Origin: an uncultured Gemmatimonadaceae bacterium
GTDB lineage: Bacteria; Gemmatimonadota; Gemmatimonadetes; Gemmatimonadales; Gemmatimonadaceae
DNA length: 64,000 nt
Reading direction: 5' to 3'
Assembly (NCBI GenBank): GCA_963716745.1
Contig: OY970320.1
Span: 1-64,000 of the forward strand
Part shown: positions 42,201 to 48,200 of the stretch, piece after piece
Layout of the letters: every line of letters begins with the position of its first letter
How positions within the stretch are numbered: position 1 is the first letter of the stretch
Made by a program: the position numbers

Positions 42201-45200
42201 GCCCGCGCCGGCACCGCGCGCATCGCGCGCCACGCGCAATATGCGCAGCACCCGGCTGACGCAGACCGTGAGACTCGACGGCGACGACGCCGTCGCGCAT
42301 CTCGAGCGTGCCCACGCCGCGCTGCGCGACGGCGCCATCGAAGCTGCGGTGGCGGCCGCGACGGCCGCCGTTGACGCGAGCGACGGCTCCGTGGAGGCGC
42401 GCACGGTGCTGGCACGCGCGCAACTCAAGGCGGGCCTCGTGGACGAGGCGTTCGACACGGTGTGCGCTGCGCTCGAGCGGGATGCGCTCAACCCCGCGCT
42501 CTACCTGCTGCTGGGCGCGTGCGCCGCGTCGCGCGGTGCGCTCGCCGACGCGGTGGCCGGGTGGGAGCGCTACCAGCGGCTCGCGCCGGACGCGGCCGAC
42601 ACCTCGCGTGTGCGCGCGGTGGCGGACGCGGCGGCGCGCCTGCGCGACGCGATGAAGGAGCTCGGCGATGTCTGACGAGATCCGCCGCCTCAGCGACGAA
42701 CTCGCGCGCGACCCGTCGAGCCTCGTGTTCCTCCAGCTCGGCGAGGCGCTGCGGAAGGGCGGGCAGCTCGAGCTCGCGATGAAGGTGGCCATGCGCGGCC
42801 TCGAGCGGCACGCGCATAATGCCGACGCGCACGATCTCCTCGCGCGCATCTGCGTCGATCGCAATGAGCTCGAGCAGGCGTTCGACGAGTGGGACATGGT
42901 GCTGCGTCTCGCGCCGAATCACGTGGGTGCGCGCAAGGGGATGGGCTACGTGCTGTACAAGCAAGGCCGGCTCGAGGAGGCCGAGGATCATCTCGAGCGC
43001 CGCCGCATCGGGCGACCGGACCGATGCGTCGATCTCCACCGCGCTCCGCATGGTGCGCCGGCTGCTGCGCTACGCGCGCCTCGCCGGCAACGGCGCGAGC
43101 GATCCGGGCCCGGCCGAACTCGAAGCGGCACAGCGGCGCGTGGAGGAAGAGGCGCACTTCCTATTCGCCGACATCCTCGGCGACAGCGAGCAGACGGCAC
43201 TGCTGCTGAATTCCGATGGCCTCGTGACCGCGGGCGCGTATCTCTCGAGCGACGGTGAGGATGTCGCGCAGGAAGTGGGTGCGCAGCTCTCGGGCGTGCG
43301 CGACGACGCGCAGCGCACCGTGCGCCACCTCGATCTGGGGGAGTGGAAGCTCGTGCTGTACGAGACCGACGTCGCCGTGGTCGCGATCGCGCCGGCGCTC
43401 GACGACTCCATGGTGCTCGTGGCCGCGTCGCACGTGATGCCGCTCGGATTCGTGCGCCGCGTGCTCGACCGCTGCGTGCGGCGCGCCACGATGTGGCTCT
43501 CGGAGGTCGGATGAGCTCGCCCTTCGAGGATCTCCTCGCGACGCTCATCCGCCAGCGCGGCGTGCTCGGCTGCCTCGTGGTGGGCGAGCGCGACGGCATC
43601 ATCGTGGACTCCAACGTCCAAGTAGGCGTGCCGGAGAGCGTCGTCGCGGCGCTGGCGGCCGCGCTCTTCCGCCGCGCGCGCCTCTCGTCGCAGGCGGCGG
43701 GGCTCGGGCAAGTGACCTTCCTGCAGCTCGAGGCCACCGACGGCCACGTGTGCGTGGTCGGGCGCGAAGGGCTGGTGATCGTGACGCTCGCCGAGCCGCG
43801 CGCGCACATCGGGCTCATCCGCGGCGCGATGCTGCAGAGCGTGGAGGCACTCACGTGAAGACGCACGTCGCCGAGCCGTGGGTCGAGGCGCCGCTGCAGG
43901 AATTCGTGGACGACGCGCGGGTGCTGTTCGCGCTCCTGCTGCATCCCAGCGGGCAGGTGCTCGGGCAGTTCGGCTTCACGCGCGCGGTGGATGTGATGGC
44001 GGCGTGCGCGCTCGCCGCCGGCATCCACGCGTCGGCGGGCCAGCTCGGCAAGGAGCTCGACGGCAAACCCTTCCGCGAGCTGTACCACGCGGGGCGCGAG
44101 CGCCATGTGTTCATCGGCGAGGTGCGCACCGCGCGCGAAGCGTTCATCTTCCTGACGGCGTTCGGCGACGAGAGCTCGCTCGGTCTCGTGCGCGTGTTCT
44201 TCGGCAATCTCTCGGCGCGGCTGGCCACCGTCGTGCCGCCGCGCGCCGACGGGCCGCCGCTCGCCGCGGCGAGTCTCGAGCAGGATCTCGCGCGGAGTCT
44301 CGCGGCGCTGTTCGGCCGCGTGCCCGCGGGTGCTGGCAACGGGGACGGGTCCGTCCCCCCGACTTCCTGAGCGCGACGTGTCCCTCGTCAACTACGCCAC
44401 CCGCGAGATCACCTGCAAGATCGTCTACTACGGCCCCGGCCGTTCGGGGAAGACGACCAACTTGCATTACATTTACGAGCAGGTGCCGCGCGACCGCAAA
44501 GGGAAGATGGTCTCGCTCGCGACCCAGACCGATCGCACGCTCTTCTTCGACTTCCTGCCGTTCGACCTCGGGATGATCTCCGGTTTCACGACGCGCTTCC
44601 AGCTCTACACGGTGCCGGGCCAGGTGTACTACCACACCACTCGGAAGCTCGTGCTCCAGGGCGCCGACGGCGTGGTGTTCGTGGCCGACAGCCAGGCGCG
44701 CCAGCTGCAGGAGAACGTCGAGAGCATGCAGGACCTGCACACGAACGCCGCCGAGCACGGGATCGATGTGCGCACCATGCCGCTGGTCATCCAGTACAAC
44801 AAGCAGGACCTGCCGTCCGAGATGATCCTGGGCGTGCCGGCGCTGGAGGATGCGCTCAACTTCCGCGGCGTGCCGTCGTTCGCCGCCGATGCGCTGCACG
44901 GCGCCGGCGTGTTCGAGACGCTGCGGGGCATCGCCGAACTCGTGCTCCGGCGCCTGAGTGCCGCGGCGCCCGCGGGGAACCGGTGACGGCCGAACTGGAT
45001 CCGCGCTACCGCTTCGAGAACTACATCGTCGGATCGGCCAATCGTCTCGCGGTCTCCGCCGCGAAGGCGGTGGCCCAGGCCCCGGGCACCGCGTACAACC
45101 CGCTGTTCATCTACAGCAGCTCGGGGCTGGGCAAGACGCACCTCATGATCGCCGTCGGCCACATGGCGATCCAACTGCAGCCCAACCTGCGGTCGCTCTA

Positions 45201-48200
45201 CATCACGCTCGACGAGTTCGTGGAGGAACTCACCGCCGCCGTGTCGTCGGGCACGATCGAGAATTACAAGCAGCGCTTCCAGGACGTGGACATCCTGCTG
45301 CTGGACGACGTCCAGTTCCTCGCCGGCCGGCGCGAGACGCAGAGCGAGATGCTGCGGCTGTTCAACGCGCTGCAGCGCGCGGGCAAGCAGATCATCCTCA
45401 CGAGCGACCGCCCACCGAACGAGATCGCCGACCTCGACGAGCGCCTCATCTCGCGCTTCGCCGGCGGACTCGTGGTGGACGTCGGCCTGCCCGATTACGA
45501 GACGCGCGTGGCCATCCTGCGCGCGAAGTGCGAGGAGCGGAAGGAGACGTTCGAGACCGGCGTGCTGGACGAGGTCGCGCGCATGAACTTCTCGAACGTG
45601 CGCGAGCTGCAGGGCGCGCTCAACCGCCTCATCGCGTGCCAGTCGCTCGGCGAGGCCGAGGTCACGGTGCGGAACGTGCGCGAGTTGCTCGGTGAGAAGC
45701 CCGACGCCGGCCCCGTGATGGCGCAGGCGCCCGCGCGGGGCGAGGAATTCGCGAGCTTCCTCAGCGACCTGAGCGATGTGGTGGCGCAGCACATCGACAC
45801 GTGGCGCGTGCGCGTCGTGGAAGCGATGACCTACTGGCATCAGCTCGGTTACGGCACCACGCTGCTCGAGCGCACGCTCGAACAGTCGGAGGAGCCGGAT
45901 GTCGACGCGCTGTTGCAGGGCTACGAGGCGAACATCGCGCGGCTCCGCGCGCTCGAGCAAGAAGCGATGCGCTACGATCCGGTGCTCGCCGAGTCGGAGG
46001 TGTTCAAGGATCCCGAGCGCGTGGGCGAGGCGGAATTGCTCGTGGCGCGGCAGATGGGCGGCGCGGAACCGCCGCCCGGCCCCGATCCCGAGCTGACGCG
46101 TGCCACGTTCGAGGTCGGGCCATCGAACCAACTCGCGGTCCACGCGGCCGACACGGTCGTGCTCGAGCCGGGCAGAAAGTACAATCCGCTCTTCCTGTAC
46201 GGCCCGCCGGGCGTGGGCGTCACGCACCTGCTGAACGCGCTCGCGAACGAGATGATCACGGCGGGCGGCGGCAAGCGGCCCGTCGCGTGCGTGAACGCGC
46301 AGCAGTTCATCGACGAACTGATCGTCGCGCTGCAGGAAGGCACGATCGAGCGGTGGCGGGCGCGCTACCGCCTCGTGGACGCGCTCCTGATCGACGATGT
46401 GCAGCTCTGCGCGACGGGCGAGCGCACGCAGGAAGAACTCTTTCACGTGTTCAACAGCTTGTACTCCGCCGGCAAGCAGGTGGTGCTCGGTGCCGACCGC
46501 GCCCCGCGCCAGATCGAGCGTCTCGAGGACCGGCTGCGCTCGCGCTTCGAGGGCGGACTCGTGGTGGAGATCCAGCCGCCCGACCATTCGCTGCGCGAGA
46601 AGCTGTACGCGCGCATGTTCGCCGCCGCGGGACAGCACGCCGATCGCGTGCTCGTGGATTTCCTGTCGGCGCGCGCCGTGGCGAACGTCGCGGAACTCGC
46701 GGCCACGGTCGACCGGCTCGTGAAGGCGGCGGGCGTGGTGGGCGTTCCGCTCAATGCATCGTTCGCGCGCAAGGAGCTCGAAGGCGGCGGCATCGCGCCC
46801 GCGCCGGCCCGCGCGATCGACGGGCGCGAGGCCGACAGCTTCTTCCTCGACGAGGAGAAGGTGGTCTGGGACTGGCCTGACGTGGCTGGCCGCGCGATCG
46901 AGGACCTCCGGTAATGGCGATCAAGGGCAGTCTCAAGGAGGCGTCGCTCCCCGACGTCCTGCAGCTCCTCGCCATGGGCCAGAAGACCGGCTGCCTGTCG
47001 GTCGCCGACCGCAACAACTTCGGCTACATCTACTTCGACCGCGGCCGCATCTCGTACGCGTCGATCGTGAACCGGCGCGACCGGCTGGGCGACCTGCTCG
47101 TGAAGCACGGCGTCGTGACGCAGCTCGAGCTCGACGTCGCGATCGAAGCGCAGAGCAAAGCGCACCGCGGCAAGCGCCTCGGCGAGATCCTCATCGAGCA
47201 GCAGATCCTCACGCGCGAGGAGCTGCACCGCTACATCCGCGTGCAGATCGAGGAAGCCGTGTACTACCTCTTCACTTGGACGCAGGGGACGTTCAGCTTC
47301 GAGGCGGACATGCGCCCCGAGGAGCACGACGTCCTCGTGTCGATCAATCCCGAATCGCTGCTGCTCGAAGGCGCGCGGCGCGTGGACGAGTGGAGCCTGA
47401 TCGAGAAGAAGGTGCCGAGCTTCGACATCATCTTCGAGGTGGACCGGACGCGGCTGGCGCAGAGCGAAGCGCAGCTCACGCCGGCACAGGAGCAGCTGAT
47501 CCCGCTGATCGACGGGCGGCGCGACGTGACGACGCTCATCGATGCGTCGGGCATCGGCGAGTTCGAGGTAGGGAAGGCGCTCTACGCCCTCGCGACCGCC
47601 GGCTATCTGCACCGCGCCGGCAAATCTCGCCCCGTGGACGACGGCGTGCGCGAGGCGCGCGTGGAGGAGCACCGCAATCTTGGCGTCGCGTTCTACAAGA
47701 CGGCGATGTTCGAGGAGGCCACGCGCGAGTTCCGGCGCGTGGTGGAGCTGAATGAGACCGACGTGCCGGCGCGCTTCTATCCTGGGGCTCGTCGCGATGC
47801 GGGAAGGGAAGTGGAGTGAGGCGGTGCTCACGCTCCGCGAGGCGGGCGCGCAGCCCAACGTGCGCCCGGCGATTTTCCACAATCTCGCCTACGCGCTCGA
47901 GCGCATGGGCCACTACGACGACGCGCGCGAGGCGCTGCAGGAGGCGATCCAGCGCGGCGGCCAGGAAGATCCGCGCATCCGCACGTCGCTCGGCGTGCTC
48001 GCGCTCAAGAGCGGCGACGTGGATGAGGCCGATGCGCTCGCTCACGGCGTCGCGTCTCCTCTGGGCCAAGCGGTCGCCGTCGCCGGCGTGGTTCCACTAC
48101 GCCGCGCTCGCGGCGGCGCTCACCGGCGAACTCGACCGCGCGCTCGAGATCGTGGCCGAAGGCGTGGAGCTGCACCCGCACGCCGCCGTGCTCTACAACA

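Follow-up and report, generated by a model that had tools for sequence, protein, structure and literature searches.

A protein with two DnaA-type ATPase modules encoded between mglA and a PATAN gene in an uncultured Gemmatimonadaceae bacterium

In the genome of an uncultured Gemmatimonadaceae bacterium (GCA_963716745.1) a gene encoding two copies of the ATPase domain of the replication initiator DnaA lies among mglA, PATAN and che genes, which raises the question of whether its product serves replication or has been turned to another purpose. The window, the whole stretch of 64,000 nucleotides analysed (positions 1 to 64,000 of contig OY970320.1), carries the following features in this region.

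35201..41248, + strand: cheW, cheY, cheA, cheC/X and a gene for a 905 aa TPR protein (Pfam)
41248..42675, + strand: second PATAN gene, with DUF4388, a proline-rich stretch and a TPR-like end (translation, Pfam)
42819..44370, + strand: three Roadblock/LC7 genes (Pfam Robl_LC7, E 2e-7 to 3e-5)
44378..44986, + strand: mglA, Ras-like GTPase (likely start GTG 44378; listed ORF from 44330)
44983..46914, + strand: tandem DnaA-domain-III gene, 643 aa, P0001 (ORF and translation)
44983..45687, + strand: module 1, complete DnaA-type AAA+, aa 1-235
45688..46098, + strand: family-specific helical linker, aa 236-372
46099..46776, + strand: module 2, degenerate DnaA-type AAA+, aa 373-598
46777..46914, + strand: C-terminal tail, aa 599-643, ending in FFLDEEKVVWDWPDVAGRAIEDLR
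46914..47819, + strand: PATAN (DUF4388)-TPR gene (Pfam DUF4388, E 1.1e-39)
47816..48541, + strand: small TPR gene, always next after the PATAN gene (Pfam TPR_1/TPR_2)
48636..52740, + strand: cheR, cheD, cheB, cheW and a gene for a 286 aa TPR protein (Pfam; order conserved in related loci)

The tandem protein contains two Bac_DnaA (DnaA domain III) stretches in Pfam (E 2.8e-109), placed at aa 5-166 and 372-529 by the genome-wide family search, with no Pfam match to DnaA_N or Bac_DnaA_C. This agrees with the preliminary description, which gave the same spans and reported two modules without domains I and IV; the B. subtilis DnaA domain III structure named there as the best PDB match (8bv3_A) is also the top solved-structure match by sequence (E 6.9e-62), and its 5601 representative proteins at E<=1e-30 became 5602 on a repeat search. 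More than 120 full-length homologues, at 56–97% identity, are among the matches listed. A literature search found no paper on this tandem DnaA-III family.

The neighbouring MglA, Roadblock, PATAN and Che genes are likewise as had been described. The mglA product matches M. xanthus MglA (5ymx_A) over aa 18-211 (phmmer, E 2.9e-72), and its TGA overlaps the GTG start of the tandem gene (GTGA at 44983-44986), the stop of which is in turn overlapped by 1 nt (46914) by the ATG of the PATAN-TPR gene; both overlaps were read in the sequence. The Roadblock ORFs are listed at 42819-43514, 43343-43858, and 43750-44370, their true starts being probably later, and the third is MglB-like (E 1e-6 against MglB chains 6h5b_B/6hjm_A). 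In the loci examined, the cluster is always between rluD and the mraW/dcw genes. The PATAN gene at 41248-42675 (DUF4388 E 1.1e-32) is an addition to the preliminary description, which named one PATAN gene; it sits inside a longer listed ORF and is found at the same position in related loci. There is also a DivIVA gene 16 kb upstream.

Of 19 Gemmatimonadota loci drawn from the best matches, 18 have the order mglA, tandem gene, PATAN/TPR. In all 92 genomes paired by hand from two listings the gene immediately downstream, in the same orientation, is a PATAN gene, although the genomes compared are kin and these counts therefore overstate independence. The same order, followed by cheD-cheB, occurs on metagenome contigs of 29–47% G+C at a protein identity of 20–27%, so that it spans 29% to 73% G+C overall; mglA is upstream in 9 of 12 such distant loci. 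Across the phylum sample the PATAN gene is found in 28/31 genomes of family f1, 70/71 of f2, 1/16 of f7, and none of f6 and f9–f12, and the distribution of the tandem gene tracks the same families. Some loci show losses. G052 has neither mglA nor the tandem gene, a joint loss that would fit a common function, and in G036 mglA has an in-frame TAG; against this, the three Roadblock genes persist in G052.

All of the motifs said to be kept in module 1 (Walker A, Walker B, box VII arginine, sensor 2) were found when it was aligned with domain III of B. subtilis DnaA, with E. coli DnaA, and with the genome's own DnaA. These are Walker A K51, Walker B D108/D109, box VII R154/R158, and sensor 2 R207, to which sensor 1 D142 can be added, and all seven residues are invariant in 116/116 close homologues. 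By motif pattern, ATP site 1 is intact in 159 of 161 full-length members. In module 2 the Walker A reads G-V-G-V413-T-H and the sensor 2 position is A570, which bears out the reported valine and missing arginine; Walker B D471/D472 and box VII R517/R521 are retained. Among the 116 close homologues the module 2 Walker A residue is K in 102, V in 12, I in 1, and R in 1, with R517 in 116, R521 in 115, the sensor 1 D in 62, and the sensor 2 R in 28. The valine had been suspected of being an assembly error, but the 12 closest relatives (P0002–P0013, 85–97% identity) have V in 11 cases and I in one; being common to all 12, loss of the lysine is a lineage trait and not an error.

ATP site 2 is intact in 133/161 full-length members and finger 2 is retained in 152/161; in the 28 with a dead site 2, the finger remains in 25. 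Family-wide, loss of arginine fingers and sensors is frequent, with Walker A preserved, a pattern that would suit a switch or adaptor that binds nucleotide more than it would a motor. In some lineages (L113, L117) the arginine fingers of both modules are gone, so that the idea of module 2 as a finger donor fails for the family as a whole. The proposal that the protein is ATP-driven is thus favoured by the complete catalytic set of module 1 and weakened by these losses and by the persistence of variants with one module or none.

A helical linker does join the modules, as was claimed, but it is a conserved family-specific domain, and it is accompanied by a conserved C-terminal tail. Its consensus is DEFxxFLxxV...WRxRVxEAxxxWxxxGxxTxxLE...FRDPE..AE, with E255, F259, G289, L295, D343, and P344 each at least 90% conserved in 75 aligned members. 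It has no match in Pfam or the Atlas, nothing significant among solved structures by sequence (best E 0.22), and a probability of 0.1% in profile comparison with DnaA domains I/II/IV. In the tail (EKxVWxWPD..RxIEE), K626, W629, and W631 are present in 116/116 close homologues and P632 in 115/116; W631 is kept in 42 of 46 diverse members. Natural variants lose one or both ATPase modules and still retain linker and tail: the one-module proteins of G049, G084, and G106 keep the linker helix and tail, as does a 69 aa mini-protein without any ATPase module, which has a 74 aa homologue (71% identity) and still overlaps mglA by ATGA. The f12 genomes encode a relative that has a single module and a similar tail, and no PATAN or mglA match was found near it. 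On the sequences compared, then, the family is defined, beyond its two modules, by the linker and tail.

The relation to the initiator is close in sequence. Module 1 shares 44.7% identity with the DnaA of the same genome and has a gap-free alignment with domain III of B. subtilis DnaA (a domain solved, e.g., in 8bv3, 2z4r, and 1l8q). Compared with E. coli DnaA it shows no gap between Walker A and Walker B, and the initiator-specific insertion thus seems to have been retained. Module 1 also scores above cut-off with TIGR00362 (516.6 bits against 343.9), and with this and the identity of about 45%, contact with DnaA itself is possible. The tandem protein differs from DnaA in lacking domains I, II, and IV, in having two modules per chain, one with a degenerate ATP site, in its new linker and WxWP tail, and in being encoded in a mglA/PATAN/che cluster far from dnaA. 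Hda, too, consists of DnaA domain III only, and its arginine finger acts on the ATP of another protomer; module 2 weakly matches Hda chains (5x06_E, E 4e-6) and Hda models. However, all of these models fall below cut-off, TIGR03420 scores 161.8 against a cut-off of 194.8, and Hda has just one module, of some 230–250 aa, and the sliding clamp as partner, unlike the tandem protein in length, build, linker and tail, and gene context.

A regulator of replication could therefore be envisaged, which would co-oligomerize with DnaA-ATP in Hda fashion through its AAA+ faces and, lacking DNA-binding domains, cap DnaA filaments or trigger hydrolysis, linking initiation to polarity signals. The intact box VII and sensor residues of module 1 would suit this, as would the family search finding no further Bac_DnaA (Hda-type) protein in the genome. 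The only other match is a 479 aa protein with DnaA_N, Bac_DnaA, and Bac_DnaA_C at 1.92 Mb of the 3.29 Mb single-contig genome, a complete dnaA 1.88 Mb from the tandem gene. Such a role is nevertheless improbable, given that the tandem gene is far from dnaA, that it tracks PATAN/MglA and not dnaA, which was found in 150/151 genomes sampled, that the module 1 clade is not nested among the seven Gemmatimonadota DnaA proteins compared, which form a clade of their own, and that the family-defining linker and tail survive without any ATPase module. Nor was a clamp-binding motif of the kind found in Hda seen at the N-terminus (MTAELDPRYRF...). It is well supported, as previously claimed, that the protein, a paralogue of DnaA, is not a replication initiator. 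That it is a functionless, decaying dnaA duplicate is hardly credible: module 2 has lost its Walker A lysine and sensor 2 arginine, and split, shortened, and frame-shifted forms exist, but the frame is open with a GC3 of 0.92, full-length homologues number in the hundreds, the seven module 1 and four tail residues are (nearly) invariant, and the gene order persists at protein identities as low as 20%.

A connection to type IV pili is suggested by MshEN-type c-di-GMP motifs and fusions. The downstream PATAN-TPR protein has a helical insertion (aa 57-111) containing the tandem MshEN 24-residue motif, a putative c-di-GMP motif, with 48.8 bits for NCBIfam NF053729 (cut-off 38) and, over 56 aa, 41% identity with the N-terminal MshEN part of P0166 (E 6e-9). 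In a Fermentibacteria record (L041), three proteins carry one or two DnaA-III modules fused to MshEN, and their genes lie between pilD and pilB-pilT-pilC-pilS. MshEN also precedes the ATPase in PilB, but there it is a secretion-type hexameric ATPase, whereas here MshEN precedes, or is encoded beside, initiator-type AAA+ modules. The present genome has pilB-pilT-pilC and pilN and no match to FlhA; the cheA of the cluster is its only H-kinase_dim (CheA) match, and three MCPs are encoded elsewhere. FlhA is found in 13/31 (f1) and 13/71 (f2) sampled genomes; some cluster-bearing genomes are flagellated, and in these the Che genes may have a flagellar role as well.

The position of the tandem gene next to mglA might instead indicate a nucleotide-exchange or GAP co-factor of MglA, standing in for RomR/RomX, reported to be a GEF in M. 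xanthus (PMC9481161), or for RomY. The genes are translationally coupled, the 69 aa variant keeps the overlap, and mglA is the usual upstream neighbour. This is possible but unlikely: PATAN is the more constant neighbour, G116 has the tandem gene with PATAN and TPR genes and its only mglA match on another contig, and no similarity to a known GEF or GAP was found in Pfam or the solved-structure sequence search. The M. xanthus system, as far as the accounts consulted describe it (MglB, MglC, RomR/RomX, RomY, SgmX), is a module of the same kind, with MglA, an MglB-like protein alongside other Roadblock proteins, a large TPR protein, and Frz-like che genes in a single system controlling type IV pili; these accounts describe no AAA+ protein among the MglA partners, whereas here PATAN proteins and the tandem protein hold conserved places beside mglA. 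Somewhat less probable again is a chemosensory, division, or general polarity accessory with no specific pilus link, for which the surrounding che genes, the place upstream of mraW (fixed in the loci examined), the DivIVA gene, and the flagellated carriers would speak. The loci of G116 and G114 have no che genes and still keep the tandem gene or mini form with PATAN/TPR, the MshEN fusions sit in a pilus cluster, and a Synechocystis PATAN domain reportedly binds the pilus motor parts PilB1 and PilC (10.1101/2021.06.11.447907).

The tandem protein is, on balance, probably a nucleotide-dependent adaptor or scaffold in an MglA/MglB-Che module that determines at which pole type IV pili are active. 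The preliminary description had made it a candidate component of a switch for polarity or motility, which now has support beyond local gene order in the synteny of distant loci, the MshEN fusions, and the pilBTC genes, single CheA, and lack of an FlhA match in this genome; gene order and fusions indicate association, not mechanism. Module 1 would bind ATP and module 2 might mainly give an arginine finger to it, within or between chains, like head-to-tail DnaA protomers. The linker helix and WxWP tail would be the constant partner-binding elements, tying together MglA and/or PATAN-TPR and the small TPR proteins, and the PATAN protein may relay the state to PilB/PilC, the pilus motor, where c-di-GMP would be an additional input. 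Assembly could be gated, or the switch reset, by the binding of ATP or its slow hydrolysis. That two copies of the initiator ATPase, without the DNA-binding parts, are found in a conserved polarity and pilus gene set would suggest that this ATPase was borrowed for a job that does not involve DNA; the domain of a replication initiator seems to have been co-opted to cell polarity and pilus-based movement.

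The tandem protein P0001, with its two DnaA domain III modules, is not a replication initiator. Its gene (44983–46914, + strand; 643 codons with a GTG start and a GC3 of 0.92, similar to that of the neighbouring genes) encodes two Bac_DnaA domains (Pfam, E 2.8e-109), which the whole-genome family search places at aa 5–166 and 372–529, and the protein scores 362.9 bits over two stretches against PF00308 Bac_DnaA, for which the cut-off is 23. In comparison with DnaA, the first module has the full AAA+ domain III set, but there is no Pfam match anywhere in P0001 to DnaA_N (domain I) or to Bac_DnaA_C (the DNA-binding domain IV), both of which are found in the genome's own DnaA (E 5.3e-10 and 1.5e-25, respectively). 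The sole further Bac_DnaA match in the genome, a single contig of 3.29 Mb, is at 1.92 Mb, in a protein of 479 aa with DnaA_N, Bac_DnaA, and Bac_DnaA_C, which means that the true dnaA is elsewhere, 1.88 Mb from the tandem gene. The preliminary description had claimed two Bac_DnaA modules lacking domains I and IV, and a true dnaA at another place, and both claims stand. The structure that it gave as the best match, 8bv3_A (B. subtilis DnaA domain III), is also the closest solved structure by sequence (E 6.9e-62), with aa 5–229 aligned free of gaps.

The sequence databases nevertheless carry an annotation trap. P0001 scores 516.6 bits against TIGR00362, the DnaA equivalog among the NCBIfam models that NCBI uses for protein naming, where the cut-off is 343.9, and its relatives are named either "DnaA/Hda family protein" or DnaA, in the case of JGI as "chromosomal replication initiator protein DnaA". 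Pipelines therefore call the tandem proteins replication initiators, and a genome can seem to have two dnaA genes. Assignment as Hda was considered and rejected, with 161.8 bits against TIGR03420 (cut-off 194.8) and scores far under the cut-offs for the other Hda and HdaA models. Hda is a single DnaA domain III module, whereas the tandem protein has two, and a QL[SP]LPL-like sequence, presumably the N-terminal sliding-clamp-binding motif of Hda, was not seen in the P0001 N-terminus. In a PADLOC scan for defence systems, the matches of the tandem protein were all generic P-loop ones, and the MglA and PATAN proteins encoded beside it had no match.

Module 1 (aa 1–235) is 44.7% identical to the genome's own DnaA and module 2 (aa 373–598) 37.7%, with 38% identity between the two modules. 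When 70 module sequences were placed in a tree with IQ-TREE, all 27 module 2 rows fell to the same side of a branch (99/94), and the 24 main-family module 1 rows formed a clade (100/100) whose internal branching order is largely that seen for module 2. Seven Gemmatimonadota DnaA proteins formed a clade of their own (100/99), without module 1. The tandem is therefore old relative to the spread of the family and did not arise by recent duplication of the resident dnaA.

The modules were aligned to E. coli DnaA and to the genome's own DnaA, and the motif calls presume the roles assigned to the E. coli residues. As described previously for module 1, the Walker A, Walker B, box VII, and sensor 2 residues are all found (K51, D108/D109, R154/R158, and R207), along with sensor 1 D142, and these seven module 1 residues are invariant in 116 full-length homologues of 56–97% identity. 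The module 2 losses that had been described are likewise present, with V413 in place of the Walker A lysine and A570 in place of the sensor 2 arginine, while Walker B and box VII (R517/R521) are kept. It had been suggested that the Walker A change might be an assembly error. However, the 12 closest relatives (P0002–P0013, 85–97% identity), from separate metagenome contigs, have V at this site in 11 cases and I in one, so the change is a lineage trait. Across the 116 homologues the module 2 lysine is present in 102 (V in 12, I in 1, R in 1), R517 in all, and R521 in 115; only 62 of them retain sensor 1 and only 28 retain sensor 2.

For the 161 full-length members, made up of the 116 close homologues and 45 distant cluster representatives, the counts are descriptive only, since the rows are kin: 159 have an intact ATP site 1 and 133 an intact site 2, while 144 retain arginine finger 1 and 152 retain finger 2. 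Finger 2 is still present in 25 of the 28 members in which site 2 is dead, which is the pattern expected if the main role of module 2 is to provide an arginine finger for ATP at the module 1 site.

Between the modules there is a conserved helical linker (aa 236–372), DEFxxFLxxV...WRxRVxEAxxxWxxxGxxTxxLE...FRDPE..AE, and the protein ends in a tail (aa 599–643) containing EKxVWxWPDxxxRxIEExx. Tail residues K626, W629, and W631 are present in 116/116 close homologues, and W631 in 42/46 distant ones. The linker has no Pfam match, and its profile found no relative among the solved structures (best E 0.22), no relation to domains I, II, and IV of full-length DnaA (hhalign probability 0.1%), and no match in the ESM Atlas outside Bac_DnaA clusters. 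Short database proteins with the linker looked like frame-shifted fragments and were rejected as stand-alone domains. Several genomes have natural variants of the tandem protein.

Natural variants of the tandem protein
G049 (L026 8726–9901): one complete module, linker, and tail, contiguous
G106: one degenerate module, linker, and tail
G084 (L028 6545–7762): module 1 with a spoiled box VII, linker, and tail; module 2 missing
G116: two modules, with Walker A and Walker B of module 2 destroyed and its box VII intact
G127 (L019 9029–11019): gene split into two frames, with the break between module 1 and the linker
G114 (L023 9778–9987): a 69-aa protein only

The split, module-2-less, and one-module forms (G127, G084, and G049) are in otherwise intact clusters. 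The 69-aa protein of G114 has nothing but the helix that opens the linker (EFQDFVADLSRTV) and the WxWP tail (IVWDWPDAVGRVIEELR); its ATG overlaps the mglA stop (ATGA), the PATAN gene is next 3', and a 74-aa homologue of 71% identity is present in another metagenome. The core that stays constant is therefore made up of the linker and tail, with module 2 seemingly inserted between the two. A constant core of this kind argues for an adaptor modulated by ATPase modules, in preference to a motor. A one-module DnaA domain III protein that has an acidic stretch and terminates in ERLILEWDREEDRLLDDL is encoded at L038 9408–10457 (G009, family f12); the 11.6 kb contig that carries it has no PATAN or mglA match.

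In the window, the genes 5' of the tandem gene are, in order, cheW, cheY, cheA, cheC/X, a 905-aa TPR gene, the second PATAN-TPR gene, three Roadblock genes, of which the third is MglB-like, and mglA. On the 3' side are the PATAN-TPR neighbour, a small TPR gene, cheR, cheD, cheB, cheW, and more TPR genes, followed by the dcw genes from mraW.

41248–42675 (+), second PATAN-TPR gene, 475 codons, starting at the stop codon of the 905-aa TPR gene
46914–47819 (+), PATAN neighbour, a DUF4388-TPR gene
47816–48541 (+), small TPR gene

ORF lists hide the second PATAN gene within a longer frame, extended upstream (39754–42675). Against Pfam PF14332 (PATAN/DUF4388) the neighbour of the tandem gene scores 135.7 bits and the second copy 113 bits, where the cut-off is 25. 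The overlap of the tandem gene with the end of mglA that had been noted is seen as a shared GTGA, containing the mglA stop and the tandem gene start, and there is a 1-base overlap between the tandem gene stop and the PATAN start. The mglA product matches M. xanthus MglA 5ymx_A (E 2.9e-72 over aa 18–211) and has the P-loop GxxxxGKT, NKxD as NKQD, and TVPGQ instead of DxxGQ, a T-for-D change whose significance is described in PMC3000849. A promoter and terminator scan of 34000–53900 found no excess over shuffles (1 against 0.9 and 6 against 6.2). In all loci examined the cluster is placed between rluD and mraW. Further 5' of it in the window (21924–35226) are ftsH, folP, a DisA_N-type diadenylate cyclase gene (cdaA-like), a DivIVA gene, ileS, a dksA-like gene, and lspA, and 3' of it (55992–59299) are mraW and a PBP gene.

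There is a DnaA-type match in 150 of the 151 genomes of the phylum sample. Among the matches listed from this family search (150 of 270), full-length tandem matches are common in families f1–f4, with a single one in f7 (G116), and were not seen in f6 or f9–f12 among the genomes searched. The PATAN protein tracks the same families (f1 28/31, f2 70/71, f3 2/2, f4 1/1, f5 1/1, f8 2/2, and, in G116, f7 1/16) and was found in none of the genomes of the remaining families. Where both places were listed, which is the case for 92 genomes paired by hand from the listed matches, leaving out G000 and two unpublished genomes, the PATAN gene is directly 3' of the tandem gene on the same strand in all 92. 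Searches with the window proteins (tblastn) found the whole order from cheY to mraW in 19 loci drawn from the best matches, with mglA directly 5' and PATAN directly 3' of the tandem gene in 18 of them; the exception is G116, where the order is rluD, tandem gene, PATAN, TPR.

Six loci were chosen for their atypical look. In one genus the tandem gene is gone from the cluster, which still has three Roadblock genes and a diverged PATAN gene. Of this genus, G052 (L024) is also without mglA, and in G036 an mglA with an in-frame TAG (G036:C12:106287-106907) adjoins the PATAN gene. G072 is without the Roadblock genes, mglA, the tandem gene, the large TPR gene, and the second PATAN gene. A shorter second MglA-like match (61–65% identity, query aa 15–177) is present elsewhere in four genomes (G114:C3:1002088, G036:C3:149464, G052:C18:8685, and G072:C37:87245).

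All named members of the family are from Gemmatimonadota. A metagenome scan with the distant member P0144 returned 80 loci, mostly ordinary dnaA, of which 12 with long matches were examined. These have a G+C content of 29–58%, compared to 68% here, and encode proteins of 20–33% identity to the window protein, in which Pfam gives two Bac_DnaA stretches. The PATAN gene is next in 11 of the 12, the contig of the remaining one stopping just past the gene, and mglA precedes in 9; those loci that are longer continue with the small TPR gene, cheD, cheB, and the 286-aa TPR gene. The linker of these proteins, EEYxEKLYVWEMKGF...LFxPD, is plainly the same element as that of the window protein, and the ends EMIEDNY, RLINDY, and RLIDSL echo its tail. 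In two of the loci (L113 and L117) both arginine fingers are gone, with both Walker A motifs present.

A link to c-di-GMP is suggested by the PATAN neighbour, whose helical insertion (aa 57–111) scores 48.8 bits against NF053729, "c-di-GMP_motif, MshE-related" (cut-off 38), as a putative site of this type; the second PATAN protein, at 32.5 bits, is under the cut-off. In the neighbour, the first candidate motif (aa 57–80) fits the relaxed 24-residue pattern given in PMC5013675, and the second (aa 88–111) fits it save for a Q at the [GAS] place. The main text of that paper makes no mention of PATAN or DnaA. A tandem RLGxxL..Q motif of the MshEN c-di-GMP-binding type can be recognized in the helical insertion of both PATAN proteins.

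Gene fusions link MshEN with Bac_DnaA. Two long relatives, P0166 (1990 aa) and P0167 (1876 aa), have an N-terminal MshEN (Pfam, E 3e-19) ahead of two Bac_DnaA modules, and over its initial 56 residues the MshEN of P0166 shares 41% identity with the PATAN insertion (E 6e-9). P0166 is from L041, a record titled Candidatus Fermentibacteria bacterium, in which the order is pilD, MshEN+Bac_DnaA (983 aa), MshEN only (436 aa), MshEN+Bac_DnaA (409 aa), P0166, a TonB_C protein, pilB (MshEN+T2SSE), an ORF without a Pfam match, pilT, pilC, a PilS-like kinase, and a further T2SSE ATPase. Four genes in a row (4309–15923) have an N-terminal MshEN, in three cases joined to either one or two DnaA domain III modules, and they are flanked by pilD and by pilB-pilT-pilC-pilS.

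According to a study in Synechocystis, the PATAN domain there is an output domain that binds PilB1 and PilC (10.1101/2021.06.11.447907), and a survey of prokaryotic small GTPases places mglA genes near PATAN genes and reports group 1 MglA in Gemmatimonadetes (PMC4316618). The host genome has a pilB-pilT-pilC set at 1.505–1.509 Mb and a pilN match, one CheA, which is in the cluster, and three MCP genes elsewhere. FlhA was not found in this genome, which at 89.8% completeness is not proof of its absence; it was found in 13/31 f1 and 13/71 f2 sampled genomes, and most carriers of the cluster are without a flagellar export gene match, while some have one.

On the anatomy, conservation, gene order, and fusions, the best-supported role for the tandem protein is that of a nucleotide-dependent adaptor, acting within an MglA/MglB-Che-c-di-GMP switch that governs type IV pili. 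ATP would be bound by module 1, with the arginine finger supplied by module 2; the linker helix and tail would dock the neighbours, and the PATAN protein would address the pilus motor. Rivals to this are a regulator that acts on MglA itself and a general che or division accessory. Less favoured are a replication regulator, which would act on DnaA, and a dead duplicate, since the phyletic pattern and the conservation speak against both.

To our knowledge, the initiator-clade AAA+ domain has so far been known only in proteins that act on DNA (DnaA, Hda, DnaC/IstB, and Orc/Cdc6), and a limited literature search found no publication on a DnaA-like protein in Mgl/PATAN/pilus clusters. Extending the adaptor reading, it is conceivable, if rather doubtful in its entirety, that such a domain has been co-opted into a signalling device that works without DNA, in which ATP-dependent head-to-tail assembly forms a polar platform or timer. 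This would sense MglA-GTP and, via PATAN/MshEN partners, c-di-GMP, and so choose the pole where type IV pili fire. Its docking code would then be provided by the linker helix and WxWP tail, and the device would be of ancient origin within the part of the tree that holds Gemmatimonadota and Fermentibacteria.

The natural one-module, split, and module-free variants offer material for dissecting the roles of the parts. If the adaptor reading is true, the tandem protein would be a conserved, unstudied partner of the polarity GTPase MglA beyond the Myxococcus model, and would give a direct handle on how PATAN and c-di-GMP link chemosensory input to pilus motors. It would also be an example of domain III putting its ATP-dependent self-assembly to use in a setting other than DNA.
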